Shown: positions 17,561 through 39,396, numbered from the stretch's first letter. The stretch: 64,000 bases of DNA from a bacterium (GCA_021796415.1 JAJYJC010000002.1:7983-71982), one strand, 5' to 3'. Notes: a model not told the origin generated them from the sequence alone. Made by a program: numbers and translations.

Positions 17561-18835
17561 ATGAAGAAATTAATCCCTGCCATATTTACCGCGGCGATTA
17601 CTTCACTCATTCCAACCATAACTTTTGCCGCTTCCAACGCTGATGTTGAGGGTTTTGCCCGCGACACTTTGACAACTCTTACTGTCTTAGCATCCATTGC
17701 CGTTGTCTTTTTCCTGATCGGCGGAGGGTATCTATATATAACCTCCACGGGGAAACCAGAGGCGCTTGATAAGGCCAAAAGAACTATCAGAAAAGCTCTG
17801 ATCGGGCTCGTAATCGTTATCGGTGCCAGTGTCATTTCCTCGATCCTAAACGGAGCGCTCACTCCGTCAAGTTCCGGCGGTATCGGGACGGCTCTAAACT
17901 TAGCTCCCATTCAGCCGGCTGCCCAAAACGGATCGCTGGCCCAAATACTTCTTGACGCTATTTCCGGTTTCCTGCAAAACATTGTTCAGTCGGCGACAAA
18001 GCCGATTATAGACGGCATTACCTGGTTTCTTACAAACACTCCGGCCTTATCAACCAACTCAGTTGTTTTTAAGTTTTGGCTCTTAATGGTCGGCATTACC
18101 GATTCACTTTTCGCCGTTGTTATCGCGCTCCTCGGCCTCCATGTCATGAGCGCCTCGACCTTCGGCTTTGAAGAGCTCAGCGTCAAACAGCTCATGCCGA
18201 GAATCGGTCTTGCTTTCCTTGTCGCCAACACCTCAATATTTTTGATTGACTGGATCATCCTCCTTTGCCAAACCTTAATCCATGCAGTTCTTAACGCCAC
18301 CGGAGGTCTGGGCCAAGCTTGGATCCTAAACGCCTTTGACCCGGCCGCCCTTGTCAGCGGTTCAACGGCTCTCATTACTCTGATATTTATGATTATCTTT
18401 GTGGTCCTAGCCATAGTTCTGCTTCTTTTCTATATCAGCCGTTTAATGATCCTTGCCTTCGGCGCCGTTATCTCACCGCTGGTCTGCCTGCTCTGGCTTC
18501 TGCCTAAGGCGTCCAACTTCGCCGAAAACGCAGTCAGAATGTATTTTGTGACGCTCTTTTCCATTTTTATCCATGTCGTTATCATTCAACTGGCCTCGGC
18601 TTTTCTTACCATACCCGGCCAGCAGGGGACAAATCCGATCATCTCCGTTCTAATCGGTATCGCTCTTCTTTCTATACTACTTAAAAGCACGGCAACCACG
18701 ACTCAACTCGCCCTATCCGCACAGACAGCGGGAACGTTCAAGAAATACGGCGGCCAGCTACTAAATGTAATGAGCTCGTCTGCCAGCGGGACATCATCGT
18801 CCAGAGCGGCGGCTCAGAAAGCGAGTACAAAATGA
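17561..18835 (+). CDS. VirB6/TrbL-like polytopic membrane protein with an N-terminal pilin-like domain
   Basis: N-terminal ~100 aa paralogous to the 17225 gene (VFFLIGGGYLYITSTGKPEALDKAKRTI). At least six further TM helices follow. Confidence 0.5.
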   Translation: MKKLIPAIFTAAITSLIPTITFAASNADVEGFARDTLTTLTVLASIAVVFFLIGGGYLYITSTGKPEALDKAKRTIRKALIGLVIVIGASVISSILNGALTPSSSGGIGTALNLAPIQPAAQNGSLAQILLDAISGFLQNIVQSATKPIIDGITWFLTNTPALSTNSVVFKFWLLMVGITDSLFAVVIALLGLHVMSASTFGFEELSVKQLMPRIGLAFLVANTSIFLIDWIILLCQTLIHAVLNATGGLGQAWILNAFDPAALVSGSTALITLIFMIIFVVLAIVLLLFYISRLMILAFGAVISPLVCLLWLLPKASNFAENAVRMYFVTLFSIFIHVVIIQLASAFLTIPGQQGTNPIISVLIGIALLSILLKSTATTTQLALSAQTAGTFKKYGGQLLNVMSSSASGTSSSRAAAQKASTK

Positions 18836-19341
18836 AAACAAGCGTAGTGCCAGCTCAAATCACAACGATCGAGGACAAAATTGCCGGCAATATGACCTTC
18901 CCTCAGATCCTGCTCCTCGTCATTTCCCTGGTTCTCGGCACCATAATCTATGTTATCGTTCCCCCAAGCTCCCGCTTGAGCGTTATAAAAATCATTGCTA
19001 TCGTCGTTCAGTTTCTCATCCTCGGCCTCCTGGCTCTCCGCGTCAAAGGGCAGACTATGGCCGACCGGCTCATGATACTGCTTCGGTACGCCCTAAGACC
19101 CCGCCTTTATCTTTTTACCAAGAACGATCTCGCAACAAGAGACGTCGCCGTCCTCGAGAAAGCAAAAAAGACGGCAAAGGTAAATAATGATTTGACCAAG
19201 AAAAAGCAGGCAGTCCCGGAAAAACCCAAACTCGACCAGTCCATGCTGGACCGGTTCTTAACAGATCCGTCATTAAATATTCGTTTAGAGCTTACCAAGA
19301 AAGGAGGAATTGATGTTTCCCTTAAAACAGATAAAAGCTAA
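18832..19341 (+). CDS. VirB3/PrgI-like small membrane protein
   Basis: Single hydrophobic hairpin near the N-terminus. Position immediately upstream of VirB4. Confidence 0.4.
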   Translation: MKTSVVPAQITTIEDKIAGNMTFPQILLLVISLVLGTIIYVIVPPSSRLSVIKIIAIVVQFLILGLLALRVKGQTMADRLMILLRYALRPRLYLFTKNDLATRDVAVLEKAKKTAKVNNDLTKKKQAVPEKPKLDQSMLDRFLTDPSLNIRLELTKKGGIDVSLKTDKS

Positions 19342-19930
19342 AGGTTCGGCGAGATCCCAAATCGGCATCAGGGAAGTCAGGGATGATATTCTCATCTTGC
19401 CCGGCAACCGCTACCGCGCGGTTCTTGCCGCCTCTTCGGTCAACTTTGAGCTCCAAAGCGAAGCCGAACAAGACGCCCTCATCGACAACTTTCAGGCATT
19501 TCTAAACTCTCTGACCACTCCGATCCAAATTCTGATCCGCGTAAGAGCCCTGGATATCGAGCAGTATTTGGAGAATCTGACTTCGGAAAGGGCCAAGGAG
19601 GAGCAAAAGATTTATAGAGACCAGCTAAAACATTATTCAAACTTTATCCGCAAGCTCGTTTCGGGCAATAAGATACTCTCGCGCCGCTTCTACATTGTCA
19701 TCCCTTATGAGAACAAGGCGGCAAGCGACTTCAACATTGCCAAAGAACAGCTCACGCTGGAACAGGAAATTATCATTAAAGGACTGGAAAAACTGGGAAT
19801 GAAAGTAAGCCCGCTTAAAAGCCTGGAAATCCTTGACCTCTTCTACAGTTTCTATAACCCGGCGCTTGCCAAATCCCAACCGCTGTCTGAAGTAATAATA
19901 GGAAAAACAAATGAACTTAACATCATTTAA
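19310..19930 (+). CDS. VirB4-family ATPase, N-terminal domain (split ORF)
   Basis: Resembles the N-terminal region of Gram-positive VirB4/TraE-type ATPases (REVRDDILILPGNRYRAVLAASSVNFELQSEAEQ). Overlaps the next ORF by 20 nt in another frame. Confidence 0.5.
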   Translation: MMFPLKQIKAKGSARSQIGIREVRDDILILPGNRYRAVLAASSVNFELQSEAEQDALIDNFQAFLNSLTTPIQILIRVRALDIEQYLENLTSERAKEEQKIYRDQLKHYSNFIRKLVSGNKILSRRFYIVIPYENKAASDFNIAKEQLTLEQEIIIKGLEKLGMKVSPLKSLEILDLFYSFYNPALAKSQPLSEVIIGKTNELNII

Positions 19931-21695
19931 GCCAAAAAGGCTTCATCGCCCGAGCAGTAAAGAACGCGCGCGCCAGGAACAGGCTTTTGCCTTCCATGTC
20001 GGAGAACAGGATCAGCTCGACCTCATCACTTACGCAGGGCTGGAAGAGAGCGCAAACCACATTGAAATAGACGGCCAGTTTATGAAGACAATCTTTGTTT
20101 CCGGTTATCCCTACACTTCTTCAAGCGGATGGCTGAACCACCTTATTAACTTCAACCATAACGTCGATATCTCATATCACATTGAGCCGGTTGACGCCAC
20201 TATGGCTCTGCCTAAACTAAACCGCAAAATCACCGAGCTTACATCTACCAAAAGAGCGATGGAGCGAGACGGACGGATTATCGGGGCCGAGCTGCTCGAC
20301 CCTCTGGAATCGGCCATGGAGCTAAGAGACAGGATTCAAAGAGGACAGGAAAATCTCTTTCAAGTCTCTTTGTATATAACACTTTTTGCCGATTCTCTCG
20401 TAGAACTCGATAAGGTAACAAAGCTCTTGGAGACTGTTCTCGCCGCAAGGCTTTTCTATACTAAGCACGCGTCTTACAGGCAAATAGAGGGCCTCCAGTC
20501 GGTGCTGCCAAGGGGCGACAACCAGTTGGCCCAAAAAAGAAACTTAGACAGCTCGTCGGCCGCCATGACATTTCCCTTTATATCATCCGAGTATGTCCAT
20601 GATTCGGGGGTTCTATACGGCATAAACAGATCGAATAATTCTCTCGTGATTGTCGACCGCTTTAAACTCCCGAACGCGAACAGCATCCTTTTTGCCCAGT
20701 CAGGAGCCGGTAAGAGCTACACTGCCAAAGTAGAGATCTTAAGGCACCTGATGCAAGGGACAAAAGTAATTGTGATAGATCCCGAACGGGAATACCGCCA
20801 GCTGGCCGACTCGGTCAAGGGAACGTATATAAAGCTCTCTGTCCATTCAAAAGAAAAGATTAATCCCTTTGATCTCTCGGTTAATACATATAATGAAGCC
20901 GACGGCTTTGCAGACCACGTCCAGTCGCTGACCGAGATAATTTCTCTGATGGCCGAGGGGCTTTCAGCGGAAGAAAAGTCAGTCGTAGACCAGGCAATCA
21001 TCAAAACTTACAGGGAAGCCGGCTTTTCACGGAGAAAAACTAAAAAGAAGAACGACAAACCTTATCCAAAACTGCGTGACTTTGCCCGAATGCTTACAAC
21101 TCTAAAGCAAGACGGACTAAGGAGAAGGCTGGAAAAATATACCGACGGGTCACTATCTGAGGTGTTTAACTCCCAGACAAATATAGAGCTCGAGAATAGG
21201 CTGGTAGTCTTTGACACCAAAGACCTGCCGGAATCTCTCCGCCAGATCATGCACTTAATTATCGCCCAGTTCGTCCAAAATCAGGTCAAAAACAAAACCT
21301 GCAAGAGAACCCTTGTCATTGATGAGGCCTGGCTGATGCTTGAACATGAAGAGAGCGCCAGATTTATTGCCGGACTTGTCAGGCGGGCGAGAAAGTATTA
21401 TCTCGGAGTCAGTATTATTTCTCAGCAGGCCAATGACTTTCTCTCAAATAACTACGGACGGGCCATTGCTTCGCAAAGCGCCCTTAGAATCCTAATGAGG
21501 CAAGACACGACTACTATTAAAAATGTCGGTATCGAGTTTGGACTGAGCGAATATGAGCAGAAGTTTCTTTTGACCTGCGAGCGCGGCGAGGCTCTCATTA
21601 TCGCCGATCAGCACCATGTGGCGGTTAAGGTTACGGCTTCGGAAGAAGAGCATCCTTTAATTACTACCGATCCGGCCGAACTAAGAAAGGCTTGA
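19911..21695 (+). CDS. VirB4-family conjugative/T4SS ATPase, ATPase domain
   Basis: Walker A FAQSGAGKSYT. Walker B RTLVIDEAWLML. ISQQAND motif. Confidence 0.75.
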   Translation: MNLTSFKPKRLHRPSSKERARQEQAFAFHVGEQDQLDLITYAGLEESANHIEIDGQFMKTIFVSGYPYTSSSGWLNHLINFNHNVDISYHIEPVDATMALPKLNRKITELTSTKRAMERDGRIIGAELLDPLESAMELRDRIQRGQENLFQVSLYITLFADSLVELDKVTKLLETVLAARLFYTKHASYRQIEGLQSVLPRGDNQLAQKRNLDSSSAAMTFPFISSEYVHDSGVLYGINRSNNSLVIVDRFKLPNANSILFAQSGAGKSYTAKVEILRHLMQGTKVIVIDPEREYRQLADSVKGTYIKLSVHSKEKINPFDLSVNTYNEADGFADHVQSLTEIISLMAEGLSAEEKSVVDQAIIKTYREAGFSRRKTKKKNDKPYPKLRDFARMLTTLKQDGLRRRLEKYTDGSLSEVFNSQTNIELENRLVVFDTKDLPESLRQIMHLIIAQFVQNQVKNKTCKRTLVIDEAWLMLEHEESARFIAGLVRRARKYYLGVSIISQQANDFLSNNYGRAIASQSALRILMRQDTTTIKNVGIEFGLSEYEQKFLLTCERGEALIIADQHHVAVKVTASEEEHPLITTDPAELRKA

Positions 21696-21699
21696 AAAA

Positions 21700-22323
21700 A
21701 TGAACCCGGCCGCTATTAAGATAATCGCAAGCGCCTACTCAATGAAAAAGGAAATTAGGCTCGCGTTCATAACTCTCGTGGCTGTTTGCTTGATTCCGGT
21801 GGTTGCCGTTTTAATGATTACCCAAGTCGGGATTGACGCGGTTTCCGGAGCTCTTGCCAGCCAGAACCCTCAGACTCTTCAAGTTGATATTCACGATCCG
21901 AAGACCGGAGCGGTCATTGATCATATTGCAGGGCCGGCTATCTGGCCGGTTTCGGGCCCAGTGAGTCTGGAGTTTGGCCAGCCTTCTCCGTTTCAGCGGT
22001 TTCATACGGGAATTGATATAGCCGACCCGAACCACAGCGTCGGCACGCCGGTTGAAGCTTTTATGAAAGGCAAGGTTATTTATGCCGACAGCGATCCTTG
22101 GGGTTTCGGCCGTCATGTCATTATTGATCACGGCCACTTTGTCACCTCGCTATACGGCCACTTGAATACTATAAACGTTATTAAGGGGCAAGAAGTTGAC
22201 ATGGGAACAGTCATCGGTACCAGGGGCAATACCGGCTGGTCAACCGGTCCGCATCTCCATTTTCAGATCGAAGTTATGCATATCCCCGTGAACCCAAGGA
22301 TATTTTTGAGTGGGAATCCATAA
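21700..22323 (+). CDS. M23-family metallopeptidase (LytM-like) with an N-terminal TM anchor
   Basis: HTGIDIA...GHFVTSLYGHL...GPHLHFQIEV (HxxxD and HxH motifs of M23). Confidence 0.75.
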   Translation: MNPAAIKIIASAYSMKKEIRLAFITLVAVCLIPVVAVLMITQVGIDAVSGALASQNPQTLQVDIHDPKTGAVIDHIAGPAIWPVSGPVSLEFGQPSPFQRFHTGIDIADPNHSVGTPVEAFMKGKVIYADSDPWGFGRHVIIDHGHFVTSLYGHLNTINVIKGQEVDMGTVIGTRGNTGWSTGPHLHFQIEVMHIPVNPRIFLSGNP

Positions 22324-22384: not shown

Positions 22385-24496
22385 TTGAATCAAATGGAAA
22401 CAAGAGAAAGTCAACAATTTAACAATCAAACAGCTTTTCCAGAAAATCAGCACACTTACAACGATCTGAATTCTGGTGATATTGAAAACCAAGAAATTCA
22501 TTTTTCTGAGGAGCAAAAGACGGCAATCGAACAAAAAAGAAGAGTTCTTTCTTCTCTTGCCTACTTTATTGGTAAGGATTTTCAGATCCCTGTAGAGCTG
22601 AATGAACCGGGTATGGGTTGGCACTGGGATTTTAAGAAAAATGAAATCAAAGTCGATCCTAAAGATCTTATTGAAAAACCCATGGACTACTTAAGATTCG
22701 TTATTTCTCACGAGGGAGGACATCGCCGTATCTCTCGGACAGAATCGATTCCTCTCGAGACTTGGAAGCAGCCCGGTTTTTCTTTCATGATGAATGCGAT
22801 TGAAGATCCCAGAGATAACAACTTTGTGGCTGAAAACTACCCAAGATTTAGAAGTCAAATGGATGTGGCGTATAAAGACAGTATGGAACTTAAGCAAGAA
22901 TCTGCGCAGAAAGCAAGTGATGAGCTCGGTTATCAGCCTCGTTTTATGCAAGCTGGCTTTGAGTATATTAAGCAGTGGCACAAAGAACAAAAAGGTGAAA
23001 AATTTTCTGTAAGCGAAGATTTACCAAAAGAAGTTCGAGAGGTTGTTGAAAAGACTTTGAATGCGGCAAGCGACTCATGGTGGCGCTATCCGTCAAGAGA
23101 AGAAGCTGACTCAAGTGAAGAGACAATCAAAAAATATGCTGAGGCCTCTTATCGAATAAACCTAGAAAGAATTTGGCCTGAGTTTCAAAAACTTGTTGAG
23201 AAGGATATGGAAGATCAAAATATGCAAGAACTCCTAGGCCAGATGCAAACAAGTGAGGAAGAGGGTGGCTCGGGGTTACCTCAAGAACTCGAAGATAATC
23301 TATCGCCAGAAGAACAAAAGGTATTAGAAGAAGCAATCGAACAAGCCATGCAGAGTGGTGCTGAGGTACAGGAACAAACAGAAGCTGGCACACGAGGCAA
23401 ACCAATTGATTTAAGCTCTTTACCCGACGAGTTGAAACAAAAAATCCAAGATTATATTAATTCTTTGCCGGAAGATCAAAAGCGAGAACTTGCAGAAAAA
23501 GCAAGGGCGGCATTGTCTGATTTTGAAAAAGAACTAGATGAGGAATTGGGAGGGAAACTCTCAGATAGCCCGGAGAAAAAAGCCGAACGAGGCGAAGAAT
23601 CTGAGATACCGTTAGAAAGTAAGGCAACTACGACCGAACCAATTACCCCGGAAGAGTCCGATGAAGTGAGAAAATACAGAGAATTTATAGAACAAGAGCT
23701 ATCAAAAGACGCTAATGCCTATGAAAGACATCGCCGAGAGGTTTTACCCATTATTGACCAGCTTGAACAAGATTTAAGAGAAATTTTTGTTATGAGAAGA
23801 TCTGGCCAATGGGAAAGCGGATTTAGGTCAGGAAAAAGAATTGATATCAAAAGAAGAATACAAGAAAAAGCCAAGGGCGTATCTGCAATGGAGAGTAAGG
23901 CGTGGGAAAAGAGAGAATTGCCCCAAGAAAAGGATTATGCTGTCAGTCTGCTTGCTGATTTATCAGGATCAATGCGAGGAGAAAAGATAAAGGAAACTTT
24001 TAAGGCAGTCATTGTGTTATCTGAAGTGCTAAACAGATTATCAATCCAAACAGAGATTCTGGGCTTTAACAACAGGATTTATGATTATCAAAACTTTGGT
24101 GAGGACATATCAAACCAAAAACGAGAAAACATGGGCGGTATGCTTCAAGAAGTTGCGGGTAGCGGACACAGGTGGAACGATGACGGTTGGGCTGTTGAGC
24201 AGGCATCGGAGCGACTGGCAAAACAAAGAGCGAAAGAAAAGTTTCTTATTGTCCTTTCAGATGGCTTGCCGGAGGAATCTTCTGCCCATCCAAGAGCAAA
24301 GTATGAGCTTGGATCTGTGGTGCAAAAAATTATTGGCTCAACGGATCAAAAGTTAATTGGATTGGGCATCGGTCCAGATACAAATCATGTTGAAAATTAC
24401 TACCCAAATAGTATTTCCAATGTAAATGTAAAGGAAATGGCTGGAAAGCTGGCCGACCTCATCCGTGAAGCTATTGCTAATTTTGATAAATTTTAA
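22385..24496 (+). CDS. VWA-domain protein with an N-terminal HExxH metallopeptidase-like motif
   Basis: ISHEGGHRRI (HExxH). Acidic coiled-coil linker. C-terminal VWA domain with MIDAS DLSGSM and LIVLSDGLPEE. The architecture resembles DUF2201-type partners of MoxR-like ATPases. Confidence 0.65.
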   Translation: MNQMETRESQQFNNQTAFPENQHTYNDLNSGDIENQEIHFSEEQKTAIEQKRRVLSSLAYFIGKDFQIPVELNEPGMGWHWDFKKNEIKVDPKDLIEKPMDYLRFVISHEGGHRRISRTESIPLETWKQPGFSFMMNAIEDPRDNNFVAENYPRFRSQMDVAYKDSMELKQESAQKASDELGYQPRFMQAGFEYIKQWHKEQKGEKFSVSEDLPKEVREVVEKTLNAASDSWWRYPSREEADSSEETIKKYAEASYRINLERIWPEFQKLVEKDMEDQNMQELLGQMQTSEEEGGSGLPQELEDNLSPEEQKVLEEAIEQAMQSGAEVQEQTEAGTRGKPIDLSSLPDELKQKIQDYINSLPEDQKRELAEKARAALSDFEKELDEELGGKLSDSPEKKAERGEESEIPLESKATTTEPITPEESDEVRKYREFIEQELSKDANAYERHRREVLPIIDQLEQDLREIFVMRRSGQWESGFRSGKRIDIKRRIQEKAKGVSAMESKAWEKRELPQEKDYAVSLLADLSGSMRGEKIKETFKAVIVLSEVLNRLSIQTEILGFNNRIYDYQNFGEDISNQKRENMGGMLQEVAGSGHRWNDDGWAVEQASERLAKQRAKEKFLIVLSDGLPEESSAHPRAKYELGSVVQKIIGSTDQKLIGLGIGPDTNHVENYYPNSISNVNVKEMAGKLADLIREAIANFDKF

Positions 24497-24508: not shown

Positions 24509-24934
24509 ATGATAAAGGAAAAATTTTCAACCTTTTTAGAATATTCTTTGTCTCAAAAAGAAGTTTCTCTAATCGTGGCCAAACATGAAAATGAGCTTTC
24601 TCATTTTGAGAGGTGGCTTGAAGACAAGGGGTTTAGAAGAGCTGCTCATGCTTTTGACTTGCTTGACAACCTTGAAGATCATAAGAAACTTTACGTGATT
24701 TTAAAAACAGAGAATGGCAAAGATTCCTATGATTTTGCGGCTCAGTTTCCAACGGGTCAGATTGAGCTTTTTGATAAAAAAACCATGAAAAAGATGCTAA
24801 AAAATATTGATTATAAAAACCGATCAATAGTCTTTTTAACCACAAAGCATCATCTCTTCGACCTTGAAAAGGAGGATTTTAATTTTCTCTCATCAGTTGG
24901 TATGGCTTTCAGAAATGGAGATGCCCATGTCTAG
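24509..24934 (+). CDS. hypothetical protein (141 aa)
   Basis: ORF between the VWA and ATPase genes. Confidence 0.4.
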   Translation: MIKEKFSTFLEYSLSQKEVSLIVAKHENELSHFERWLEDKGFRRAAHAFDLLDNLEDHKKLYVILKTENGKDSYDFAAQFPTGQIELFDKKTMKKMLKNIDYKNRSIVFLTTKHHLFDLEKEDFNFLSSVGMAFRNGDAHV

Positions 24935-27002
24935 TCCGGAATTTAGTTTACTTACCGATCCTGAGCAGGAAAAGCCTGTAGAGGATAAGCATCAGGAAGA
25001 AAAAAGCGAGACTCTCGCTCCGATTGCGGAGGATGAAACCTCGGTTTCATATCTAGGGGTAAGATTAGAAAAAGGGCATGTGCCAAGCCCCTTTATACCA
25101 GAGAGAGATAAATATACTGACTATATAAATGATCGATTTACCCTGGAGCTACAGCAGAAGATTGCCATCGGCTTTCAGTCGGGCGACCCTACTCTTATCG
25201 AAGGCGGGACTAGTATCGGTAAGACTACAGCAGCCAGAAAGATGTGTGCGGAACTTGGCTGGGAAGTTCATTATGCTAACTTGAATAAGGCCACGGATGT
25301 TGAAGATTTAATGGGCCGATATATTCCAAATCCTCATCGAACCAAACCTGATGATCCCGAGTTCGTTTTTGCCGATGGAAGAGTTACGGCCGGCCTAAGA
25401 CAGGAAGAAGGAAAAATAAAAGTTATCATCCTTGATGAATATAATGCGGCAGCGCCAAACATTGTAATCCGCCTGCATGAGGTACTAGATGCCCTTGAGC
25501 GTGATGGAGATGTTGTGCTATCGGAAGATGCCTCAGAAACCGTTCCTGTATCGAAAGATAAGACGAAATTAATTGCCCTCACTAATCCGCCCGGAAAAGG
25601 TTACTTTGGTCGTGAACCGCTAGATCCGGCTCAGTTAAGAAGATGGGTCTACCAGAAAGAAGCGAGCAATTTACCCGAAAATACTTTCTCTTTTTCAACC
25701 AAAAGTCTCTTTGGCTTGGTCTCGGAAAATGGCGATGTTATTCCCGAAGAAGTTTACCTAGAATCTCATGAAGACACTCTTTCTTCTCAGCAAATTGCTG
25801 AAATTCCCGGTATTAGCGAAGTGGAGGCAAAGTATGAAGAGTTTCATAGGGCAGCGAAAGAGCTTTTGAAAAATAGAACCATTGCTGCCGATCAACCGCA
25901 ACAGTTTACTTTTGATGATAGAATGGAGCCAAGACGGGTACGAGACTTTGTAATGAGGTTTTACAGCGGAGATATCAATGAAACTTTTCAGCAAGCTCTA
26001 AGATATTATTATTCGAATAAACTAGAGTCAGACGAAGACAGGCAGAAGATTGAAGAGCTAATCTCTCATGTAGGATACACTCCTCAGCCCGACTCAAGAA
26101 GGTTGGGTCTTGAGGATGAATCACGCCCAGAGGGAGTTGGCCTAAGAGATCAAGTCGAGATCGGCATAGAAGATATTTTGCAGGACCCGGCCATTCCGGA
26201 TTCAGTCAAAGAGGTTCTAAGAGTTGAGGGGGTAAAGTTTTCTGAGGCAAAGGAAATAATGAACCAAGATTTTATCGGTCCAGACGAGATTAAAAAAGCT
26301 TTTGGTTTAGAGGTGGATAGAGTACCAGATATTCCCTTTTCAAGAAGCGAACTGGAAAGAGCTAAGGAACTCGATCAAATGCTTATATATAGAACGGGTA
26401 CTGCTGCCCGAGGCGAGCCGATGACTATGGAAAAGATAAATGGCCTTCTTTCCGGCAAGACTAAAGATGGCGGAAAGATATTTTTTGATACTGATTGGTA
26501 TAAAGATGAGGCATTTTTTAAGTCTGAAGCAATCAAGGAAGGATGGTCTCTTGTGTCTAAGGAAGTTATATCTGAGTCGACCAGCAAGAACTATCTGGAG
26601 CAAACCGAGACAATGGTAGATTATCTTAGGAGTAAAGTTTTTGCAGGAGGCGATGTGCCAGAGGAATATCAGGAAGCAATTGGCCAATTTGAAAGCCAAA
26701 AAGATGAAATTTCAAAATTGATAGAAAGTAACTGGAAGAAAGCGGCTGAAAAACTAGAGGGTCTTTCCATTACTCACATGACCAGACAAAGACCGGTTGA
26801 AGCTATCTATGACTTAGTTGCTGTTTATGAGAATACTGATGACCATCTACTTTCTAACAGATATACTTGGACTTCCGCGCGTGACTCTGGCGGCAAGCTG
26901 GTCCGTGTGGGCTACTTCGATGCCAGGGGCGTGCGTGTCCACGGGGGCAGTCCCGACGATCGGTATGACAATCTGGGCGTTTCTTTCTCCCGCAGTCAGT
27001 GA
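24930..27002 (+). CDS. AAA_5/MoxR-like ATPase fused to a C-terminal DGR variable (target) domain
   Basis: Walker A GGTSIGKTTAARKM. Walker B VIILDEYN. Sensor 1 LIALTNPPG. Arginine motif LDPAQLRRW. The last 113 bp before the stop is VR1. The start is uncertain (24864-24930). Confidence 0.7.
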   Translation, partial: SSPEFSLLTDPEQEKPVEDKHQEEKSETLAPIAEDETSVSYLGVRLEKGHVPSPFIPERDKYTDYINDRFTLELQQKIAIGFQSGDPTLIEGGTSIGKTTAARKMCAELGWEVHYANLNKATDVEDLMGRYIPNPHRTKPDDPEFVFADGRVTAGLRQEEGKIKVIILDEYNAAAPNIVIRLHEVLDALERDGDVVLSEDASETVPVSKDKTKLIALTNPPGKGYFGREPLDPAQLRRWVYQKEASNLPENTFSFSTKSLFGLVSENGDVIPEEVYLESHEDTLSSQQIAEIPGISEVEAKYEEFHRAAKELLKNRTIAADQPQQFTFDDRMEPRRVRDFVMRFYSGDINETFQQALRYYYSNKLESDEDRQKIEELISHVGYTPQPDSRRLGLEDESRPEGVGLRDQVEIGIEDILQDPAIPDSVKEVLRVEGVKFSEAKEIMNQDFIGPDEIKKAFGLEVDRVPDIPFSRSELERAKELDQMLIYRTGTAARGEPMTMEKINGLLSGKTKDGGKIFFDTDWYKDEAFFKSEAIKEGWSLVSKEVISESTSKNYLEQTETMVDYLRSKVFAGGDVPEEYQEAIGQFESQKDEISKLIESNWKKAAEKLEGLSITHMTRQRPVEAIYDLVAVYENTDDHLLSNRYTWTSARDSGGKLVRVGYFDARGVRVHGGSPDDRYDNLGVSFSRSQ
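26878..26990 (+). repeat. DGR variable repeat VR1 (113 bp)
   Basis: Matches the TR at 29518-29630 with 13 substitutions, all at TR adenine positions. Confidence 0.85.
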
Positions 27003-27085
27003 TACTTTGAAAATTGATTTTTGAAACTTTGATACGCCGAAGGCGTCGGACACAAAATTTTAACAGAAGGTAATAAGGATAAAAA

Positions 27086-28066
27086 ATGAGCGAAATCGGA
27101 TCACCACAACCTGAAATACCGGAGGAAGCGGTAGAAAAAGAAGCTGAGGGTATTAGAATTGCCACAGAAATATCTGAGCTTAGGGCAAGTGCCCGTAATG
27201 AAGCTGATTATGAGAATATTTTGCAAAAAACTCGAGAGCTAAAGGAGCTTTTTGGGATAGTTGTAGAAGGTAAGCTTTCTGGCGAAGTTGCGGAACAGAT
27301 GAGTATGGCCAAAGAAATCATGGAGGAGGATTTTTTCGGTCCGGATGAGATTAAAAAAGCCCTTGGCATTGAAGTGACTGAAATGCCGGACATCCCATTC
27401 AAAAAAGAGGAACTAGAAAGAGCAAAGGAGCTAGAACAGATATTGATTTTGCGGACAGACAAAGCTTCCGATGGCAGTCCTCTAACAATGGAAAAGGTTC
27501 GCGACATGATGGGTAACGAAGACAAAGATGGCGGAAAAATCTTTTGGGAGAGCGCTGACTGGTATAAAGATGAAGCTTTTTATACCAAAGAGACTGCTAA
27601 AGTTGGTTGGGCGTTGGTCTCTAAAGAGGAAATTCCTGATGCAACCAATAAAAATTATTTAGAACAAACAGAAAGTCTTGTTACTTACCTCAAAAACCAA
27701 GTTTTTGCCGGAAAACCGATGCCAAAAGAATATCAGGATGCCGTAGGCGAATTTGAATCACAGAAGTCAACAATAGAGAGTTTGGTCGAAGATGACTGGA
27801 AAGCTGCAGCAGAGAAGTTATCCAAGCTTTCCATTACCAAGCTCACCCGCCAATCACCGGTTGAGGCCATTTATGATATAGTAGTGCATTATCAGAACAC
27901 GGATGAGAGATTGCTAGAAGAAATGTATACTTGGACTTCCGCGCGTGACTCTGGCGGCAGGCTGGTCCATGTGGGCGGCTTCGGTGCCGAGGGCGTGAAT
28001 GTCAACGGGAGCAGTCCCGACTCTCGGTATGACTTTCTGGGCGTTTCTTTCTCCCGCAGTCAGTGA
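27086..28066 (+). CDS. DGR target protein paralog (326 aa)
   Basis: About 65% identical to the C-terminal 270 aa of the 24930-27002 product. VR2 sits at its 3' end. Confidence 0.7.
   Translation: MSEIGSPQPEIPEEAVEKEAEGIRIATEISELRASARNEADYENILQKTRELKELFGIVVEGKLSGEVAEQMSMAKEIMEEDFFGPDEIKKALGIEVTEMPDIPFKKEELERAKELEQILILRTDKASDGSPLTMEKVRDMMGNEDKDGGKIFWESADWYKDEAFYTKETAKVGWALVSKEEIPDATNKNYLEQTESLVTYLKNQVFAGKPMPKEYQDAVGEFESQKSTIESLVEDDWKAAAEKLSKLSITKLTRQSPVEAIYDIVVHYQNTDERLLEEMYTWTSARDSGGRLVHVGGFGAEGVNVNGSSPDSRYDFLGVSFSRSQ
27942..28054 (+). repeat. DGR variable repeat VR2 (113 bp)
   Basis: Matches the TR with 14 substitutions, all at TR adenine positions. Confidence 0.85.
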
Positions 28067-28123
28067 TACTTTGAAAATTGATATTTGAAACTTTGATACG
28101 CCGAAGGCGTCGGACACAAATTT

Positions 28124-29194
28124 TTAACTATCGATGATTTTATCGATTTCTTTTTTAATCTCTGCTCCTCTGCAGTGACTTAAAATCCCTAAATATGATT
28201 GAACCATTTGCTTGAAAGATTGCTGGTCTTCTTCACTCCCGGAAAGCAAATACTTTTTTGCTCTAATCTTCCTCAGCATTCTTTTCTTGGTCTTTGTTCT
28301 AAGGATTATATGGTATGGAAAAACAACATAACCCAAAAAGTCAATTCCTTGGCTAAACTTTCTGAGAACAATTTTGTCCGAATGAAGTTGTAGGCGAAGT
28401 TCTTTTTTTAAGAAATGAGCTAATGTTGGTATCAGTTTTTCTAGATGTTTGACATCTGTGCTCAAGATCACAAAGTCGTCTGCATAACGGATGTAATATT
28501 TCTCCTTGAGATTTCTTTTGACAAATTGATCAAGGGCATTCAAATAGACATTAGAGAAAAGCTGGCTGGTGAGATTTCCCAAAGGTATACCTCGCCTTGG
28601 TTCATTCTTTAGCTGATTTGTATTGAAACTCTCTATAATCTCTTCTAGTAAAGCTATCAGGTCTTTTTCTTGAATCACCTTTTCAATTAGGTTTAAAAGT
28701 ATGTCGTGATCAACTGAATCAAAAAATTTCCTTATATCGCACTTCAAAACCCAGACAGTTCTTGTATTATTTTTAGATAGTTTCCACGCAAAATATCGAA
28801 GGCGGTGAACTGCCTTATGCGTCCCTTTTTCTTTTCGGCTGGAGTACGAGTCAAAAATAAATTTCTTTTCAAAAACAGCTTCAATGACGCGGAAAATAGC
28901 GTGATGTAAAACCCGATCAAGAACCAGAGCCTTATTGATGGTTCTAAGTTTTGGGTCAGTGACATAAAATGTTGTATAATCAGAATGTCGATAACAATTA
29001 TTTTTCAGCTCATTGTGAAGTTTGTAAATTTGATTTTCAGGATTTAGGGCAAATGCCTGAACATCTAGCTTGCTTTCTTTACCCTTTTTAAATTCTCTCC
29101 AGGCGGAGAAGAGATTTTCCAATGATATTATTTGATCAAACAAACTATGACAACCACTCCTGACAACAGATTTTCCGATATTTCGATTATTCAT
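28124..29194 (-). CDS. DGR-type reverse transcriptase
   Basis: RT motifs: DGR-characteristic GIPLGNLTSQLFSNVYLNALDQFV (LGNxxSQ in place of the group II intron QGxxxSP), YIRYADDFVIL (YADD), GIDFLGY. The start codon may be the downstream TTG (about 29140). Confidence 0.8.
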   Translation of the reverse strand: MNNRNIGKSVVRSGCHSLFDQIISLENLFSAWREFKKGKESKLDVQAFALNPENQIYKLHNELKNNCYRHSDYTTFYVTDPKLRTINKALVLDRVLHHAIFRVIEAVFEKKFIFDSYSSRKEKGTHKAVHRLRYFAWKLSKNNTRTVWVLKCDIRKFFDSVDHDILLNLIEKVIQEKDLIALLEEIIESFNTNQLKNEPRRGIPLGNLTSQLFSNVYLNALDQFVKRNLKEKYYIRYADDFVILSTDVKHLEKLIPTLAHFLKKELRLQLHSDKIVLRKFSQGIDFLGYVVFPYHIILRTKTKKRMLRKIRAKKYLLSGSEEDQQSFKQMVQSYLGILSHCRGAEIKKEIDKIIDS

Positions 29195-29512
29195 AAAACC
29201 TACAAGTTTTATCTTGCTTTATATTCCACAAATCAGTTTTTACCAAAGAGAGATCGATATACTCTTGGGGTGAAAGCCGAAAATATTAGTTTGGAGATTC
29301 TTGAAACGTTATATTTAGCCAATTCTAAAGCTGGCAATATCCGCCTAGAACTGCTAGAAAAAGCCGATGTGAAGTTAAAAGTTCTCCAAGCAGTCATACG
29401 CCTTTGCCACGATACAAAAGCGCTTGATCAAAACAAATATCTTGCTTTGCAGTCTGCATTGCAAGAAATAGGGAAAATGCTTGGAGGTTGGATAAAAACT
29501 ACAAAAAGTTAG
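29132..29512 (+). CDS. Avd-like four-helix-bundle accessory protein
   Basis: Similar to the Avd / 23S-rRNA-intervening-sequence four-helix-bundle family (…LPKRDRYTLGVKAENISLEILETL…, C-terminal EIGKMLGGWIK). Lies between the RT and TR on the opposite strand. The start may be the internal Met at 29147. Confidence 0.55.
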   Translation: MIKQTMTTTPDNRFSDISIIHKTYKFYLALYSTNQFLPKRDRYTLGVKAENISLEILETLYLANSKAGNIRLELLEKADVKLKVLQAVIRLCHDTKALDQNKYLALQSALQEIGKMLGGWIKTTKS

Positions 29513-29517
29513 ACTTC

Positions 29518-29630
29518 GGAGAAAGAAACGCCCAGATTGTCATTCCGATTGTCGGGACTGTTCCTGTTGACATTCACGCCCTTGGCATCGAAGTTGCCCA
29601 CATTGACCAGCTTGCCGTCAGAGTCACGCG
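29518..29630 (-). repeat. DGR template repeat (TR, 113 bp, sense on the minus strand)
   Basis: The reverse complement aligns base for base with VR1 and VR2. Every mismatch is at a TR adenine (17 of 27 adenines vary across the two VRs). Variable codons are mostly AAY. Confidence 0.85.
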
Positions 29631-30073
29631 TTTCTTTACACTTTTCCATCTAAGCAAGGGTAATGTGATGAGGATTCTCAAAAAATTGTTTCAAAACATT
29701 ACCTGTTTGAAAATGCGGTGACCAATCACGCCAGAAAAGTGTAAGCAGTCTATACTATCTTTGCGAGATATATCCGTAAACATATCTTCATTGCTTAAAC
29801 ATTTTATCACAATTTGGCTTTTATAAACAGAAAGCTACCAAAAGATAACTTTTTTGTATACTTGTCTTCTGATTTCATAAGGGTAAAATGGGCATATGAA
29901 AAAGGCAGAATTTTTAAAAGAATTTGATAAATATTCCGAGAAGTTTCTTGATGCTATACCAAGACAAGCACTAGGGTATAGCCAATGGCTGATGATGGCC
30001 GATGATTTCAGAATGTTCGTGGAGACCGGTAAACTGCCAAATCAGCTTAATGAAGAAAATACCAAATAATACT

Positions 30074-34992: not shown

Positions 34993-36417
34993 TAATAAAA
35001 TTATATATAGTTCTAGTAAAGGATTTTTTATATAAAAAAGACAATAAAAAGCTTGATTTATTTTTTTAAGTTTGCTAAACTTTATAAAGCTAATAAAAAC
35101 AGGTCATTTATGACAAACGAAACGACAACTAAATACAGAGTGGACGGAAGCGGCTGTTAGCCAAAAAATTAAGTTGCTTTAAGGAAGTCCGCTAAAGGCG
35201 GATTTTTAAATTGTTTTGGCAAATTGGCGTGAAAAGATTTCAAATCGATTCAGCCGAAACAATTCGCGCCTCGCGCGAAAGTATACAGTATCCCGTATTC
35301 AGTATTGAGGTTTTATACCGAATGCACAATACTCGATACCCAATACTGTCAAGCGAGCATTGCGAGTTAAGATCGGACTTTGACAACTGAATACAGATAC
35401 ATGCTAATCCTTAAGGATTCAAGGTCGGATGTTAAATTTTTAATTTTGCATTTTGAATTTTGAATTACAGTATGTATCTTAGGGTAAACGAAATATTACA
35501 ATTTCAAATCCAGTTGATGATTACTGGTTAAGTTCGTGTCTCACTTTCGTTCGACAACGAACAGTATGCGGTATTCTGTATTCAGTATTGAGGAATTAAT
35601 CCCAATACACAATACTCGATACGCAATACTGATTATTCGCGAGCGGTAGCGAGATACGAATAAATCATCATTAAGTCAAGAAAGAGCATATGGTGGATGC
35701 CTTGGGATTTCAGGCCGATGAAGGACGTAGTAAGCTGCGATAAGCTTCGGGGAAGTGCTAAACAACTTTTGATCCGGAGATTTCCGAATGGAGCAATCCG
35801 GCTCGGGTTATGCCGAGTCACACTTAGCTGAATACATAGGCTATTTGAGGGCACGCGGAGAACTGAAACATCTTAGTACCCGCAGGAAAAGATATCAACC
35901 GATATTCCGTCAGTAGTGGCGAGCGAAAGCGGAAAAGCCAAAACTTTTTTAATGTTAAAGCTTATGGGCGTTGTTAAAAAAGTGTTGTGAGGTAGATACA
36001 CTCCTTTTTGGAGGTTAGATTTGGGACACTGGCTTGTGCTTTGCACAAGGAAATTCAAAGTACTAAATCCGAAATCCGAAACAAAACTTCAAATTCAAAA
36101 TACTAAACTAGAAACGTGTTTAGAACATTTGAATTTAGATATTAGATATTGTTTCGTGCTTCGAGATTAGAATTTAGGATTTTCTCGCGTAAAGCGCGAG
36201 TTTAGCTCCAAAACTAATACCAGGATCCATAAATCTTGGGTAAGGTAAGAAAACGAGAGTTTTAATGGAATATTCTGGAAAGAATAACCATAGAGGGTGA
36301 TAGTCCCGTACGTAAAAAAACTTTTGTCCTTATGTATTTATTCTCTAGTACTACGGAGCCCGTGAAACTCTGTAGGAATCTGGGTGGACCACCATCCAAG
36401 GCTAAATACCTGAAATC

Positions 36418-36462
<45 letters not shown>

Positions 36463-38288
36463 TGTTAGGGGAGTGAAATAGAATCTGAAACCGTATGCTT
36501 ACAGACGGTCGGAGCCGATACTTTGTATCGGGAATGTCTAATTTCCAATTAGCAATTTCCAGTCAATGAATAAATGTCTAATTTCCAATTTTGGAATTTA
36601 AAGCATTAGGATTTGATTGGACATTAGAAATTGGTCATTGGTAATTCTGATACAGAGTGTCGGTGACGGCGTGCCTTTTGTAGAATGAGCCAACGAGTTA
36701 CCCCGCACTTTTTGTCTAAGCCGTTCCGCGGTGGAGGCGAAGGGAAACCGAGTGTTAATAGCGCGATTTTAAAAGTGCTGGGTAGACCCGAAACCGGGTG
36801 ACCTATCCATGGGCAGGCTGAAGCGGCGTTAAACCGTCGTGGAGGGCCGAACCCACTTACGTTGCAATGTGAGGGGATGACCTGTGGATAGCGGAGAAAT
36901 TCCAATCGAACCCGGAAATAGCTGGTTCTCTCCGAAATAGCTTTAGGGCTAGCGTCATAAATTCGCTTTTGGAGGTAGAGCACTGACTGGGCTAGGGGGC
37001 ATATAGCTTACCAAACCCAAATAAACTCCGAATTCCGAAAGTTTTATTATGGCAGTCAGAACGTGGGGGCTAAGCTCCACGCTCGAAAGGGAAACAGCCC
37101 AGATCGCCATCTAAGGTCCCTAAGTCTATGCTAAGTGGAAAAGGATGTGAGATCGCATAAACAACCAGGAGGTTGGCTTAGAAGCAGCCATGCCTTTAAA
37201 GAGTGCGTAACAGCTCACTGGTCTAATGCGATTTTGCGCCGAAGATATAACGGGGCTAAGCATAGCACCGAAGATGCGAGTTCGCCGTAGGCGAACACAG
37301 AGTAACTAAAGAACCAAGGAACGGAAGAACAAAAAGACAAATTCATTTGTTTTAAGTTTTTCAGTTCTTATGTTCATCTGTTATTTTGTGCTCGTCTATG
37401 GCGAGCGGTAGGAGAGCGTTCCATACTGCAGTGAAGCTGAACTGGAAAGTTTGGTGGAGTGTATGGAAGTGAGAATGTTGGCATGAGTAACCAAAATCCC
37501 TGTGAAAAACAGGGACACCGTAAACCCAAGGTTTCCTGGGCAACGATAATCGTCCCAGGGTTAGTCGGTCCTAAGCCGAGGCCGAAAGGCGTAGGCGATG
37601 GACAACAGGTTGATATTCCTGTACTGCTTATTTTGTTCCCACAAGTGACGCAGGATGGTAGCCGGAGCATTTTATGGCTATAGGTGTCTAAGTGTCTAGG
37701 TGCTTCGCTTTTGTTTCGCAAGTGAAAAGTTAAAAATGCAAAGTGAAAAGTTGTCGTATTCTTCGGATGATTTATAATCGTCGCGAAGCGACTCATAAAC
37801 TTTCAACTTTTAAATTTGAACTTTAAATTATTTGCGACGCGTAAGCGGAGCATTGAAGCACGAATGAAATCTCCGTAAAACGAGAAATTCCGGTAAGCCA
37901 AACTGACTAGAAAAGCTTGTGATTAATAGAGATAAGCAACCGTACCGAAAACCAACACAGGTGGGTGGGTAGAGAATACCAAGGTGCTCGGGAGAACCCT
38001 CGTTAAGGAACTCGGCAAAACAGCGGGCGTAACTTCGGGATAAGCCCTGCCTGGGTGTGCCGCTTTGTTCCTGAGAACGAAATGCATAAAAACAAAAAGT
38101 TGAGAAAAGAAGTGAAGACAAGAAACTCGGGAGCATAGCGGCACATCTAGGCCGCAGCGAATGAGTCCAGGCGACTGTTTATCAAAAACACAGGTCTCTG
38201 CTAAATCGTAAGATGAAGTATAGGGGCTGACGCCTGCCCAGTGCTGGAAGGTTAAGTGGATGGGTGCAAGCTCTGAAATGAAGCCCCA

Positions 38289-38344
<56 letters not shown>

Positions 38345-39143: not shown

Positions 39144-39176
<33 letters not shown>

Positions 39177-39396
39177 GGTAACGGAGGCGTTCAAAGGTGG
39201 GCTAGGTCTGGATGGAAATCAGACTGATAGTGCAAACGCATAAGCCCGCTTGACTGCAAGGCCTACAAGCCGCGCAGAGACGAAAGTCGGAGTTAGTGAT
39301 CTTTTGAGTGCACGTGGGTGCCTCATTGCTTAACGGACAAAAGCTACCCCGGGGATAACAGGCTTATAGGATCCAAGAGTCCACATCGACGATCCT

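Follow-up and report, generated by a model that had tools for sequence, protein, structure and literature searches.

The present evidence makes it highly probable that the locus described here is a chromosomal diversity-generating retroelement (DGR) of a CPR/Patescibacteria lineage, built on the core order TR-(avd)-RT and working in the manner proposed below. An earlier note on the same DNA had claimed that the DGR is complete, comprising one TR and two VRs together with a reverse transcriptase (RT) of the DGR type and an Avd, and this claim is supported by the repeats, by the matches of the RT and of Avd, and by the relatives of the locus. The element is an ordinary one for the class of CPR DGRs, elements that are known to be frequent in these ultra-small bacteria; the part that is absent from Rfam is a structured RNA that precedes the template. 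Positions refer to the window, the whole 64-kb stretch of DNA that was analysed.

Template and variable repeats

In pairwise alignment, the reverse complement of 29518-29630 (the TR, 113 nt, sense on the minus strand) matches without gaps two plus-strand segments of the same length, at 26878-26990 (VR1) and 27942-28054 (VR2). VR1 differs from the TR at 13 positions (A>G 8, A>C 3, A>T 2) and VR2 at 14 (A>G 8, A>T 4, A>C 2); 27 of the 27 mismatches fall on TR adenines, and the non-A positions are unchanged in each VR (86/86). The alignment thus reproduces exactly the mismatch numbers given in the earlier note, and tabulation by TR base bears out the confinement of the differences to adenines. 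With random placement, the chance of every mismatch falling on an A is 5e-10 for 13 positions and 7e-11 for 14. The TR contains 27 adenines in total, 20 of which vary in at least one VR. The two VRs share a codon register, in which the TR adenines occupy codon positions 1 (12 cases) and 2 (15 cases) but never position 3, and the codons actually varying are, as claimed, mostly AAY (8/13). The final 19 nt of the homology are free of A and the same in the TR and both VRs, beyond which the TR (GAAGTCTAAC...) and the VRs (CGCAGTCAGTGA...) part, with a 1-nt offset possible; an IMH at the VR end and a differing IMH* at the TR end may lie here. Each VR is followed, after 9 nt (about 10 had been claimed), by a TGA stop codon, at 27000-27002 and 28064-28066, respectively. 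The coding DNA just upstream of the VRs is 61.5% identical between the paralogs, versus 100% at the non-A positions of the VRs, implying repeated overwriting from one template. No third VR-like site is present in the 64-kb window.

Reverse transcriptase, Avd, and their relatives

The RT gene (28124-29194, minus strand) is an ORF of 356 aa, publicly called as 339 aa with a start near 29143, and its product carries the motifs LGNLTSQ and YADD and matches Pfam RVT_1 at 2.9e-25. Among proteins of solved structure, the RT is closest to 8ub7_A (E 3e-41), which its depositor named only 'Reverse transcriptase'; this protein has 328 aa and carries YMDD and IGSLTSQ, and because of its length and motifs we take it to be probably the bRT of the Bordetella phage BPP-1. 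Group II and retron RTs match far more weakly (~1e-21), and the RT reaches none of the curated cut-offs for group II (163 versus 300 bits), retron and DRT proteins, these similarity scores upholding the DGR-type assignment made earlier. The avd gene (29147-29512, plus strand, 121 aa) lies antisense between the TR and the RT gene, and its product matches Pfam bAvd at 1e-18 and passes the cut-off of NF033474, DivGenRetAVD (84.9 versus 80 bits), which confirms the Avd-like gene that had been recognized between the VRs and the TR. Both ORFs are intact. Their starts are divergent and abut or overlap, thus leaving no intergenic promoter space, a point that counts against our preferred explanation. 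The core order is therefore TR (29630>29518, minus strand), avd (plus strand), RT (29194>28124, minus strand), with the cassette pointing towards the targets, inverted relative to them; neither this orientation nor the antisense placement of avd had been remarked on in the earlier note.

For comparison, we kept the 80 closest relatives of the RT (their loci carry L0xx labels), which are RT genes of MAGs that nearly all bear a Patescibacteria title; their identity to the RT of the window is 46-58%. In 63 of the 80, a TR/VR pair, recognized by at least 80% of the mismatches being at template A, adjoins the RT gene, and about 60 of these 63 are arranged as VR-TR-(avd)-RT; avd is antisense between the TR and the RT gene in nearly all relatives. 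The closest relative, L087, also has an inverted cassette and two VRs, with mismatches at A in 18/18 and 20/21 cases. Inversion, seen in the window, in L087, and in a similar case, L064, is a trait of a few per cent of the relatives. The first survey of CPR DGRs is reportedly that of Paul et al., from 2017. Architecture B3, TR-(avd)-RT, is found in 90% of CPR DGRs (Wu et al., 2018, PMC5758913), which correspond to DGR clade 2 of Roux et al. (2021, PMC8144416), and the CPR RT clade is placed apart from clade 5 of Dore et al. (2024, PMC10907252).

Target genes and their operon

Target gene 1 (24927-27002, plus strand) encodes 691 aa as called, a product recorded in NCBI/ENA (the ORF opens at 24864), and combines an N-terminal AAA_5 (MoxR/midasin-type) ATPase (residues 111-260, Pfam AAA_5 6.4e-12) with a variable C-terminal domain predicted to be C-type-lectin-like (CLec). 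Target gene 2 (27086-28066, plus strand, 326 aa) is a paralog that is devoid of the ATPase, with a predicted CLec/FGE-like fold; the C-terminal 313 aa of target 1 are 55% identical to it, in agreement with the paralogy of the VR-bearing genes proposed earlier. The predicted fold is nearest to Treponema TvpA, a C-type-lectin DGR target, at a sequence identity of only 14%, with Foldseek E-values that are not significant and with an N-terminal helical region of ~100 aa that has no counterpart in this closest comparison. Pfam FGE-sulfatase does not match the targets. As is expected of a DGR, each VR stands at the 3' end of the target ORF and, according to the predicted models, would encode the variable face of a C-type-lectin fold.

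The operon begins with a vWA/CobT-like gene (22385-24496, plus strand), a 703-aa ORF with an HEGGH motif (Pfam CobT_C 5.2e-17, VWA 4.4e-6), which is present at the equivalent position in L083, L087, L088, L089, L090, and the P0014 contig, and whose product is 66% identical to the L083 ortholog. It is followed by a small, conserved gene (24509-24934, plus strand, 141 aa) that has no Pfam or NCBIfam match; a gene of 134-141 aa occupies the equivalent position in all the syntenic loci, the L083 copy being 36% identical. The order vWA - small gene - AAA_5::CLec - CLec - DGR is seen in at least seven contigs. Both targets stand downstream of the vWA/CobT-like gene in this conserved operon. The targets would likely serve for binding or sensing, as a diversified module to which the ATPase-vWA pair is coupled.

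Targets joining an AAA/midasin-type ATPase to a variable domain constitute category g1/UVR4 of Wu et al. (PMC5758913), and AAA-ATPase::CLec is the commonest CPR target architecture according to Dore et al. (2024, PMC10907252, citing Paul 2017). These published targets, along with the RT relatives and the B3 core, place the locus within a known kind of DGR. It shares with the CPR B3 elements the RT identity of 46-58%, the antisense avd between TR and RT, the ATPase-fused target, and the chromosomal location, but it departs from them in the inverted cassette, in lacking a stem-loop after the TR, and in a leader that would represent a divergent subfamily. A different parallel is offered by the VMAP ternary MoxR-vWA conflict systems, whose operons likewise combine a vWA protein with an AAA+ ATPase of the MoxR family and a CLec diversified by a DGR; in the window, however, the CLec is fused to the ATPase and not to the vWA protein. 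The MoxR-vWA 'VMAP ternary' DGR systems are systems of multicellular bacteria, according to Dore et al. (2024, PMC10907252; Kaur et al., 2020, cited there). With Pfam and NCBIfam, neither the 141-aa gene nor its neighbours could be recognized as a VMAP, a peptidase, a TIR or another effector. We do not file the locus as a member of the VMAP ternary systems, while AAA_5 and vWA/CobT_C are both present.

A predicted leader structure and a putative duplex closing the template

Immediately 5' of the TR, at 29629-29751 on the minus strand, the sequence is predicted to fold into a structured leader, a three-helix junction with a closing stem (P1) and two hairpins (P2 and P3). In the window its conserved strands are CAnACAGG and AGAUGG and its minimum free energy is -27.1 kcal/mol (z -1.74); its three helices recur in L087, L083, L084, and L086, and compensatory changes affect 11 of 25 pairs across these loci and the window. 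For the clade at large, we define here a CPR DGR TR-leader motif, an unpublished family whose model, R1, was built from 36 seed loci. Its conserved strands are UUGGU, AUACA, and AGAUGG, its junction ends at the TR start, 96% of its cells are paired, and its covariation is 0.83, versus 0.31 in shuffles. R1 matches 52 of the 84 loci searched, once each and beside the TR wherever this was mapped, and matches nothing elsewhere in 859 kb. In the window, R1 gives a weak full-length match at 29625-29764 (14.4 bits, E 0.0055 in 551 nt) with the filters off and none with the default filters, which we count against our preferred explanation. As judged by sequence covariation, the clade shares a three-helix RNA leader 5' of the TR, of which the window probably carries a divergent form. 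The leader has no match in Rfam 15, and no description of such a three-helix leader was found in the accessible literature. One study of DGR RNA viewed only the 40 nt upstream of the TR (Handa et al., bioRxiv 10.1101/2023.10.23.563531), and the leader thus lies outside its view.

About 170 nt upstream of the TR, an extended -10-like box, TGATAAAAT (29801-29809, minus strand), is a candidate promoter for the TR transcript; L083 has TGGTAAAAT in its place, within an 89-nt non-coding block of 74% identity. A sigma-70 promoter scan made no call for the TR transcript, another point against our preferred explanation.

The ends of the TR may be brought together by a second RNA element, in which a 3' arm, GCGUUUCUUU (29522-29531, minus strand), pairs with AAAGAAACGC (29628-29637) at the leader/TR junction. 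In the window this TR-closing duplex is a perfect complement of 10 bp; L083 and L084 carry AGGAAACG / CGTTTCCT, the compensatory change being a synonymous TCT>TCC change. The duplex occurs only in the window-type subfamily, where it measures 9-12 bp. A stem-loop after the TR is found in 52 of 66 relatives (79%), with a median of ~9 bp, ~10 nt past the TR. Handa et al. (bioRxiv 10.1101/2023.10.23.563531) predict such an element, as a binding site for Avd, in 207 of 278 Avd-type DGRs. No such stem-loop is detected in L087, L083 or the window, in the last of these even at relaxed settings, and its absence from the window too counts against our preferred explanation. The duplex of the window subfamily resembles the cPRT-Stop duplex predicted by Handa et al. 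in bridging the TR ends, but its 3' arm is inside the TR and not downstream of it.

Flanks of the variable repeats

The 3' flank of VR1 (26991-27063, plus strand) consists of an imperfect IMH-like continuation, the stop codon, a T-rich array, and a hairpin at 27034-27046. The flank of VR2 (28055-28128, plus strand) is a copy of it, with array and hairpin (28098-28110), and abuts the RT stop codon. The ~73 nt after VR1 and VR2 differ at two positions and are part of a 203-nt repeat (26862-27064 and 27926-28128). The earlier note had likened the hairpin in these flanks, ACGCC-GAA-GGCGT, to the homing element of BPP-1. The shared flank and the hairpin are real, but the likeness did not hold up: BPP-1-type elements have a GC stem of 7-10 bp and a 4-nt GRNA loop and lie 4-34 bp from the VR (PMC3240598), whereas this hairpin has a 5-bp stem and a 3-nt GAA loop, lies 43 nt past the VR, and folds at -4.7 kcal/mol, with 21 of 200 shuffles folding equally well. 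Its first pair is A-T in the window and C-G in L083 VR1, and post-VR hairpins are inconsistent in the relatives. Since repeats of this type follow the VR in only 34% of DGRs (Wu et al., PMC5758913), a BPP-1-type hairpin is no universal criterion.

The array is the more consistent feature. In the VR1 flank it comprises 7-8-nt T-rich units, TTTGAnnn, at ~26999-27033, and self-similarity at lags 7/8 is significant in the flanks of both VR1 (p=0.03) and VR2 (p=0.011). Across the clade, such arrays follow VRs behind unrelated target families: the frequency of CTTNG per 70 nt is 2.18 after VRs, versus 0.36 after TRs and 0.31 in the background, the distances between its copies peaking at 7 and 8 nt, and significant lag-7/8 periodicity is present in 36 of 67 VR flanks, versus 1 of 66 TR flanks and 39 of 474 flanks downstream of other long ORFs.

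Alternative explanations

The flanks may simply be a terminator or a 3' UTR shared by duplication, carrying no homing signal, a reading that we hold to be a serious contender while leaning against it. The hairpin in the window is weak and, in the multi-target relatives listed, strong terminator-like hairpins and T runs come after the last target gene (e.g., L083 VR2 and L084 VR3), while inner genes are followed by none. However, what the flanks have in common is the array rather than the hairpin, and neither the enrichment and spacing of CTTNG after VRs nor the scarcity of the periodicity after TRs and other ORFs, nor its recurrence behind unrelated targets, fits this reading; the window flanks are also nearly identical next to genes that are ~62% identical, and no terminator was called there.

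As to the element as a whole, it may be a fossil in which both VRs were diversified in the past and which has since ceased to work, for example by losing the post-TR stem-loop. We consider this unlikely, even though no TR-proximal hairpin was found at relaxed settings, versus 79% of the relatives, and even though the protein clusters have one member each and no VR variants appeared in two metagenome scans, two results that also weigh against our preferred explanation. A dead element would accumulate non-A substitutions, and there are none in 2 x 86 positions, alongside paralogs of 61.5% identity; the RT, avd, and both targets are intact. L087 and L083 also have no hairpin and their VRs are still A-specific, so the absence of the hairpin is a trait of the sub-lineage, which carries the TR-closing duplex instead. 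Ordinary gene conversion within a paralog family, with the third copy a mere gene fragment and no retroelement involved, has almost no chance of being the explanation. The targets are indeed tandem paralogs, and the 203-nt block that they share reaches beyond the TR homology on both sides, suggesting that some DNA-level conversion between the two is likely. Such conversion cannot, however, put 27 of 27 differences on the adenines of one copy or confine those adenines to codon positions 1 and 2, and the third copy adjoins a DGR-type RT and Avd, with the same geometry in ~60 related loci.

Proposed mechanism and implications

The reading as a DGR that works leans, for its steps, on the analogy with BPP-1 (mtd-avd-TR-brt), with which the locus shares adenine-specific TR-to-VR differences, a VR at the 3' end of a gene for a (here predicted) CLec fold, an Avd, an RT with I/LGxxxSQ and YxDD, and a GC-containing constant segment at the 3' end of the homology. 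It differs from BPP-1 in gene order and strands, in having an antisense avd where BPP-1 has a 140-nt spacer downstream of the TR, in its ~120-nt leader of predicted structure upstream of the TR, in its two targets, and in being cellular and not phage-borne. By this analogy, a minus-strand transcript would start ~170 nt upstream of the TR and carry the three-helix leader and then the 113-nt TR; the RT, with Avd, would copy the TR to cDNA, misincorporating opposite template adenines; and, in either paralogous target, the cDNA would take the place of the 113 homologous nt at the 3' end. Up to 17 codons could thereby be randomised, which would give each gene a repertoire of ~10^15-16 protein variants in a putative C-type-lectin/FGE-like ligand-binding domain. 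The repeat geometry with its A-only differences, the identities of the genes, the predicted fold, the placement in the clade, and the conservation of the operon and of the RNA structure are results of the analysis; within this scheme we infer the transcription start, the priming, the homing, the present-day activity, and the role of the targets.

We suggest, tentatively and as a possibility short of our favored expectation, that the B3 DGRs of CPR build the reverse-transcription complex on an RNA layout other than that of BPP-1. The leader and the TR-closing duplex could jointly do the work of the downstream spacer, the antisense avd lying where that spacer would be, and, in place of a GC cruciform, the 7-8-nt T-rich array that begins at the stop codon may be what marks the targets. 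If this different layout is indeed used, the window would represent a naturally occurring variant able to function with no post-TR stem-loop.

A Complete Retroelement of the CPR Class

The locus is a true and complete diversity-generating retroelement (DGR), of the B3 class of the CPR and with AAA-CLec targets, and the same reading in the earlier note stands on the A-only pattern of the repeats, the DGR-type RT and Avd, a hairpin analogy apart. The reverse complement of 29518-29630, the template repeat (TR), forms gapless 113-nt alignments with the two variable repeats, VR1 (26878-26990, +) and VR2 (27942-28054, +), containing 13 and 14 mismatches, respectively. All 27 of these fall on TR adenines, and all 86 non-A positions of the TR are unchanged in both VRs. 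As A makes up 27 of the 113 nt, the random chance of all mismatches falling on A is 5e-10 for 13 and 7e-11 for 14. The mismatches, tabulated anew from the gapless alignment, bear out the coordinates and counts of the earlier note, and its RT motifs (LGNLTSQ, YADD) and its common 3' flank of the VRs are likewise correct. A third VR within the window was considered and rejected, as no further TR/VR-like copy is found in the 64 kb. VR1 and VR2 are read in the identical codon register, in which the TR adenines occupy codon position 1 (12 of 27) or 2 (15) and no other, so disposed that 17 codons are variable, allowing approximately 10^15.7 protein variants per gene (about 10^15-16), with stop codons reachable by A mutagenesis only from two AAG codons. 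That neither VR shows a non-A change, amid paralogs at about 62% identity, argues for overwriting of the VRs that would be recent on the scale of the divergence of these paralogs.

As to the RT (28124-29194, -; an RVT_1 protein), the best match among solved structures, at E 3e-41, is 8ub7_A, a reverse transcriptase of 328 aa carrying the IGSLTSQ and YMDD motifs, while group II intron and retron RTs reach only about 1e-21. Judging from its length, its motifs and the YMDD box, we take 8ub7 to be the Bordetella phage bRT, a point on which the depositor's name is silent; a literature text search for '8UB7' gave no match. In NCBIfam, the protein scores under every curated cut-off (163 versus 300 bits for group II, and likewise for the retron and DRT models). 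Assignment as a retron, group II intron or DRT RT was rejected, given the far better match to 8ub7_A and these missed cut-offs. The avd gene (29147-29512, +) matches NF033474 (DGR-Avd) with 84.9 bits versus the 80-bit cut-off, as well as Pfam bAvd; Avd has no match among PDB sequences at E<=0.01. The starts of RT and avd (29143-29194) are divergent and about 3 nt apart in public gene calls, with the longest ORFs overlapping by 48-63 nt, and each promoter must therefore lie within the other gene. Target 1 (24927-27002, +) carries an N-terminal AAA_5 domain. No Pfam domain is recognized in target 2 (27086-28066, +), which shares 55% identity with the last 313 aa of target 1.

With each species represented by one genome, a scan identified 556 relatives of the RT, and the best 80 of these, 46-58% identical to the window RT, are titled almost exclusively as Patescibacteria MAGs, with a few under other bin labels. 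By self-comparison, with a TR/VR pair defined as one having 80% or more of its mismatches at A, 63 of the best 80 possess such a pair, and about 60 of the 63 follow the order VR(+), TR(+), avd(-), RT(+). An antisense avd between TR and RT is odd at first sight but already known: the B3 architecture, TR-(avd)-RT, accounts for 90% of CPR DGRs and is almost absent elsewhere, and midasin/AAA motifs in the targets of CPR DGRs have been described as well (Wu et al., 2018; PMC5758913). The window also contains 23S and 5S rRNA genes, and the DGR is therefore chromosomal; a phage origin was rejected, as the neighbors are a T4SS-like cluster, the rRNA genes and syntenic chromosomal genes.

Several other features of the region can be recorded. 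The 23S rRNA match (35669-39549) extends over 3881 nt versus the 2925-nt model, implying insertions of about 950 nt, and a LAGLIDADG motif (AGFLDGDGS) is encoded by an ORF (39717-40184) located after the 23S end and before the 5S gene (40901-41017); neither 16S rRNA nor tRNA is found in the 64-kb window. The type IV secretion-like cluster (17561-22323), encoding a T4SS pilin, PrgI, a VirB4/TraG-type ATPase and an M23 peptidase, is directly upstream of the DGR operon. Further upstream are a 508-aa ORF (15397-16923, +) combining the homing-endonuclease-associated HNH_repeat with sigma-70 region 3, and a DUF3800-V RNA (Rfam RF02964; 9485-9580, +; 71.5 bits, well over the gathering score).

A Conserved Target Operon and an Inverted Cassette

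Target 2 has 241 homologs, almost all without annotation. An operon composed of vWA/CobT_C, a small gene (about 136-141 aa), AAA_5::CLec, CLec alone and the DGR cassette is present in at least seven contigs (the window, the related contigs L083, L087, L088, L089 and L090, and the P0014 contig), in two of which the downstream PLDc_2 and HTH genes are also syntenic. The operon up to the lone CLec gene thus represents a stable, vertically kept target module of one CPR lineage (with about 85 related loci). The clearest ortholog, L083 (66% identity for vWA, 62% for target 1, 60% for RT, and 66% for Avd), possesses the cassette in its customary orientation. The window instead shows it inverted as a whole, from the RT stop (28124) to 29815 or beyond. 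L087, the nearest relative as judged by target 2 (61%), shares the inversion and possesses two VRs with 18 of 18 and 20 of 21 mismatches at A; the inversion is thus an inherited one, with which the A-only signature is compatible.

Variations of this plan are also seen. In each of the loci L084 and L086, a transglutaminase-like gene precedes a set of three VRs, all of which are A-specific. In L088 (6185-8187) and L089 (6195-7688), a GIY-YIG ORF separates target 2 from TR, and the gene call for the RT is split into two ORFs, of 224 and 146 aa; despite this split, the VRs are nearly purely A-specific (17/17 and 23/24 in the former, 20/20 and 21/21 in the latter). A large serine recombinase (Resolvase, Recombinase and Zn_ribbon_recom) adjoins the cluster of DGR and targets in L083 (12348-13706), L084 (9878-11188) and L086 (112-1419), in L083 beside a LOOT RNA (12057-12182); none was seen near the DGR of the window.

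Public data were also searched for variants of the VRs. An exact-sequence cluster look-up returned clusters of a single member each, and metagenome scans, one with the VR end plus flank as a pattern and one with the TR adenines as N, gave no match. The only Logan contig recovered (L001, from SRR13170411; 1856 nt) encompasses just RT, avd and TR. An independent assembly, it runs on for 33 nt after the RT stop codon and terminates at the edge of the VR2-flank repeat, where a break in the assembly graph would be expected from a VR region that is repeated or heterogeneous.

Sequences Following the Variable Repeats

The two target genes are 61.5% identical over the 200 nt before their common block and, from 26859 to 27063 (target 1 coordinates), nearly identical except at TR-adenine positions. 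As the VR flank is absent from the TR, homing cannot explain its conservation, which must come from selection or from DNA-level conversion between the two target genes. The earlier note likened a GAA-loop hairpin in this flank (27034-27046) to the homing element of phage BPP-1, for which the rules are a stem of 7-10 bp with a GRNA tetraloop, placed 4-34 bp from the VR (PMC3240598). This likeness is not supported: with a 5-bp stem, a 3-nt loop and a position 43 nt past the VR, the hairpin is outside these rules, and 21 of 200 shuffles fold equally well (-4.7 kcal/mol). In the copy after VR1 of the ortholog L083, a single compensatory change from A-T to C-G keeps the stem. Hairpins of 5-6 bp or more occur in about half of the VR flanks of the relatives; their distance varies, few are followed by a T run, and among the multi-target relatives listed the inner targets often lack one, the strong hairpins being found after the last gene and resembling terminators.

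VR flanks across the clade have as their general feature short T-rich units, arrayed one after another from the stop codon onward. In the window, with arrays at 26999-27033 and 28063-28097, the sequence reads GTGATAC TTTGAAAA TTGATTTT TGAAAC TTTGATAC, and degenerate 7-8-nt units (TTTGA, CTTNG) also occur in the flanks of the related loci L002-L090, in the form of CTTTG, CTTAG or CTTGG in other target families. CTTNG is found 2.18 times per 70 nt after VRs, versus 0.36 after TRs and 0.31 in the background, with spacing peaks at 7 and 8 nt, and self-similarity at lags 7/8 is significant in 36 of 67 VR flanks versus 1 of 66 TR flanks and 39 of 474 flanks of other long ORFs (p=0.03 and 0.011 for the two flanks of the window). 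The array is thus specific to VR flanks, as compared to both TR flanks and other gene ends. It may have a terminator or UTR role; a promoter/terminator scan called nothing convincing after the VRs. We infer that, as a cis element on the target side, the T-rich array is a better candidate than the hairpin.

RNA on Both Sides of the Template Repeat

Downstream of TR, 52 of 66 relatives (79%) possess a hairpin (median 9 bp) starting about 10 nt past TR; the TR strand shows a T run behind it in 37 of the 52. This hairpin fits the 'Avd-binding stem-loop' predicted in 207 of 278 Avd-type DGRs, those of CPR included (Handa et al., bioRxiv 10.1101/2023.10.23.563531). No post-TR stem-loop with a U run is found in the window (29440-29517, -), in L087 or in L083, and the VRs of all three are A-specific despite this; in the window, 5 nt separate the stop codon of avd from TR. 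Both a flip of the cassette and a loss of the stem-loop are thus possible without loss of the A-only signature. The window possesses a 10-bp duplex formed by AAAGAAACGC at the leader/TR junction (29628-29637, -) and the complementary GCGUUUCUUU at the 3' end of TR (29522-29531). In L083 and L084, both sides are changed together, to AGGAAACG with CGUUUCCU, with a synonymous codon change. No such TR-closing duplex was found in the main clade (flat p-values), and it is seen in the window-type subfamily only. A pairing of AGAUGG with the post-TR sequence is recurrent by eye only.

Upstream of TR, most of the clade possesses a conserved leader of about 118 nt, directly 5' of TR (L011-L081; for example, L044:5403-5519). 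The alignment of 36 loci describes a three-helix junction of 22 pairs, 20 with compensatory changes, with 96.4% of cells paired versus 70.4% in shuffles and a covariation score of 0.83 versus 0.31 when shuffled (no higher than 0.23 with partners slid by 1-3 columns). As G-U pairs are frequent, the structure is specific to the TR-sense strand. R1, the covariance model built from these loci, has one match per locus in 52 of the 84 loci searched (16 of the 52 outside the seed), just 5' of TR wherever TR is mapped, with no other match in 859 kb. No Rfam 15 match was obtained for ten leader loci or the window, and the leader is found neither in Rfam nor in the literature surveyed, a survey that stopped short of Paul et al. 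(2017). The window leader (29629-29751, -; MFE -27.1 kcal/mol, z -1.74) is a divergent subfamily version, scoring 14.4 bits against R1 with filters off and giving no match with default filters; the window-type subfamily (window, L087, L083, L084, L086) maintains the same three helices, with compensatory changes in 11 of 25 pairs. A conserved TGATAAAAT box (29809-29801) may be the promoter of the window leader; the promoter scan called nothing convincing for the TR transcript. In the BPP-1 RNP, RNA flanking TR on both sides positions the template-primer duplex (bioRxiv 10.1101/2023.10.23.563531), and by analogy the leader and the TR-closing duplex may, speculatively, be organizers of priming.

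Implications

Overall, the locus is one more well-formed case of a class abundant in CPR genomes, and its worth is comparative. The less ordinary results come from the comparison: an inversion that is inherited, a sub-lineage that has lost the post-TR stem-loop, the repeat array in the VR flanks and the strongly covarying leader RNA. We claim priority for none of these, as Paul et al. (2017) is outside the comparison. No experimental system for these organisms was found in the literature surveyed. The leader RNA and the VR-flank array are two conserved non-coding features of the clade, possible cis elements of priming and homing, and, if functional, they would provide handles for reconstituting a CPR DGR.
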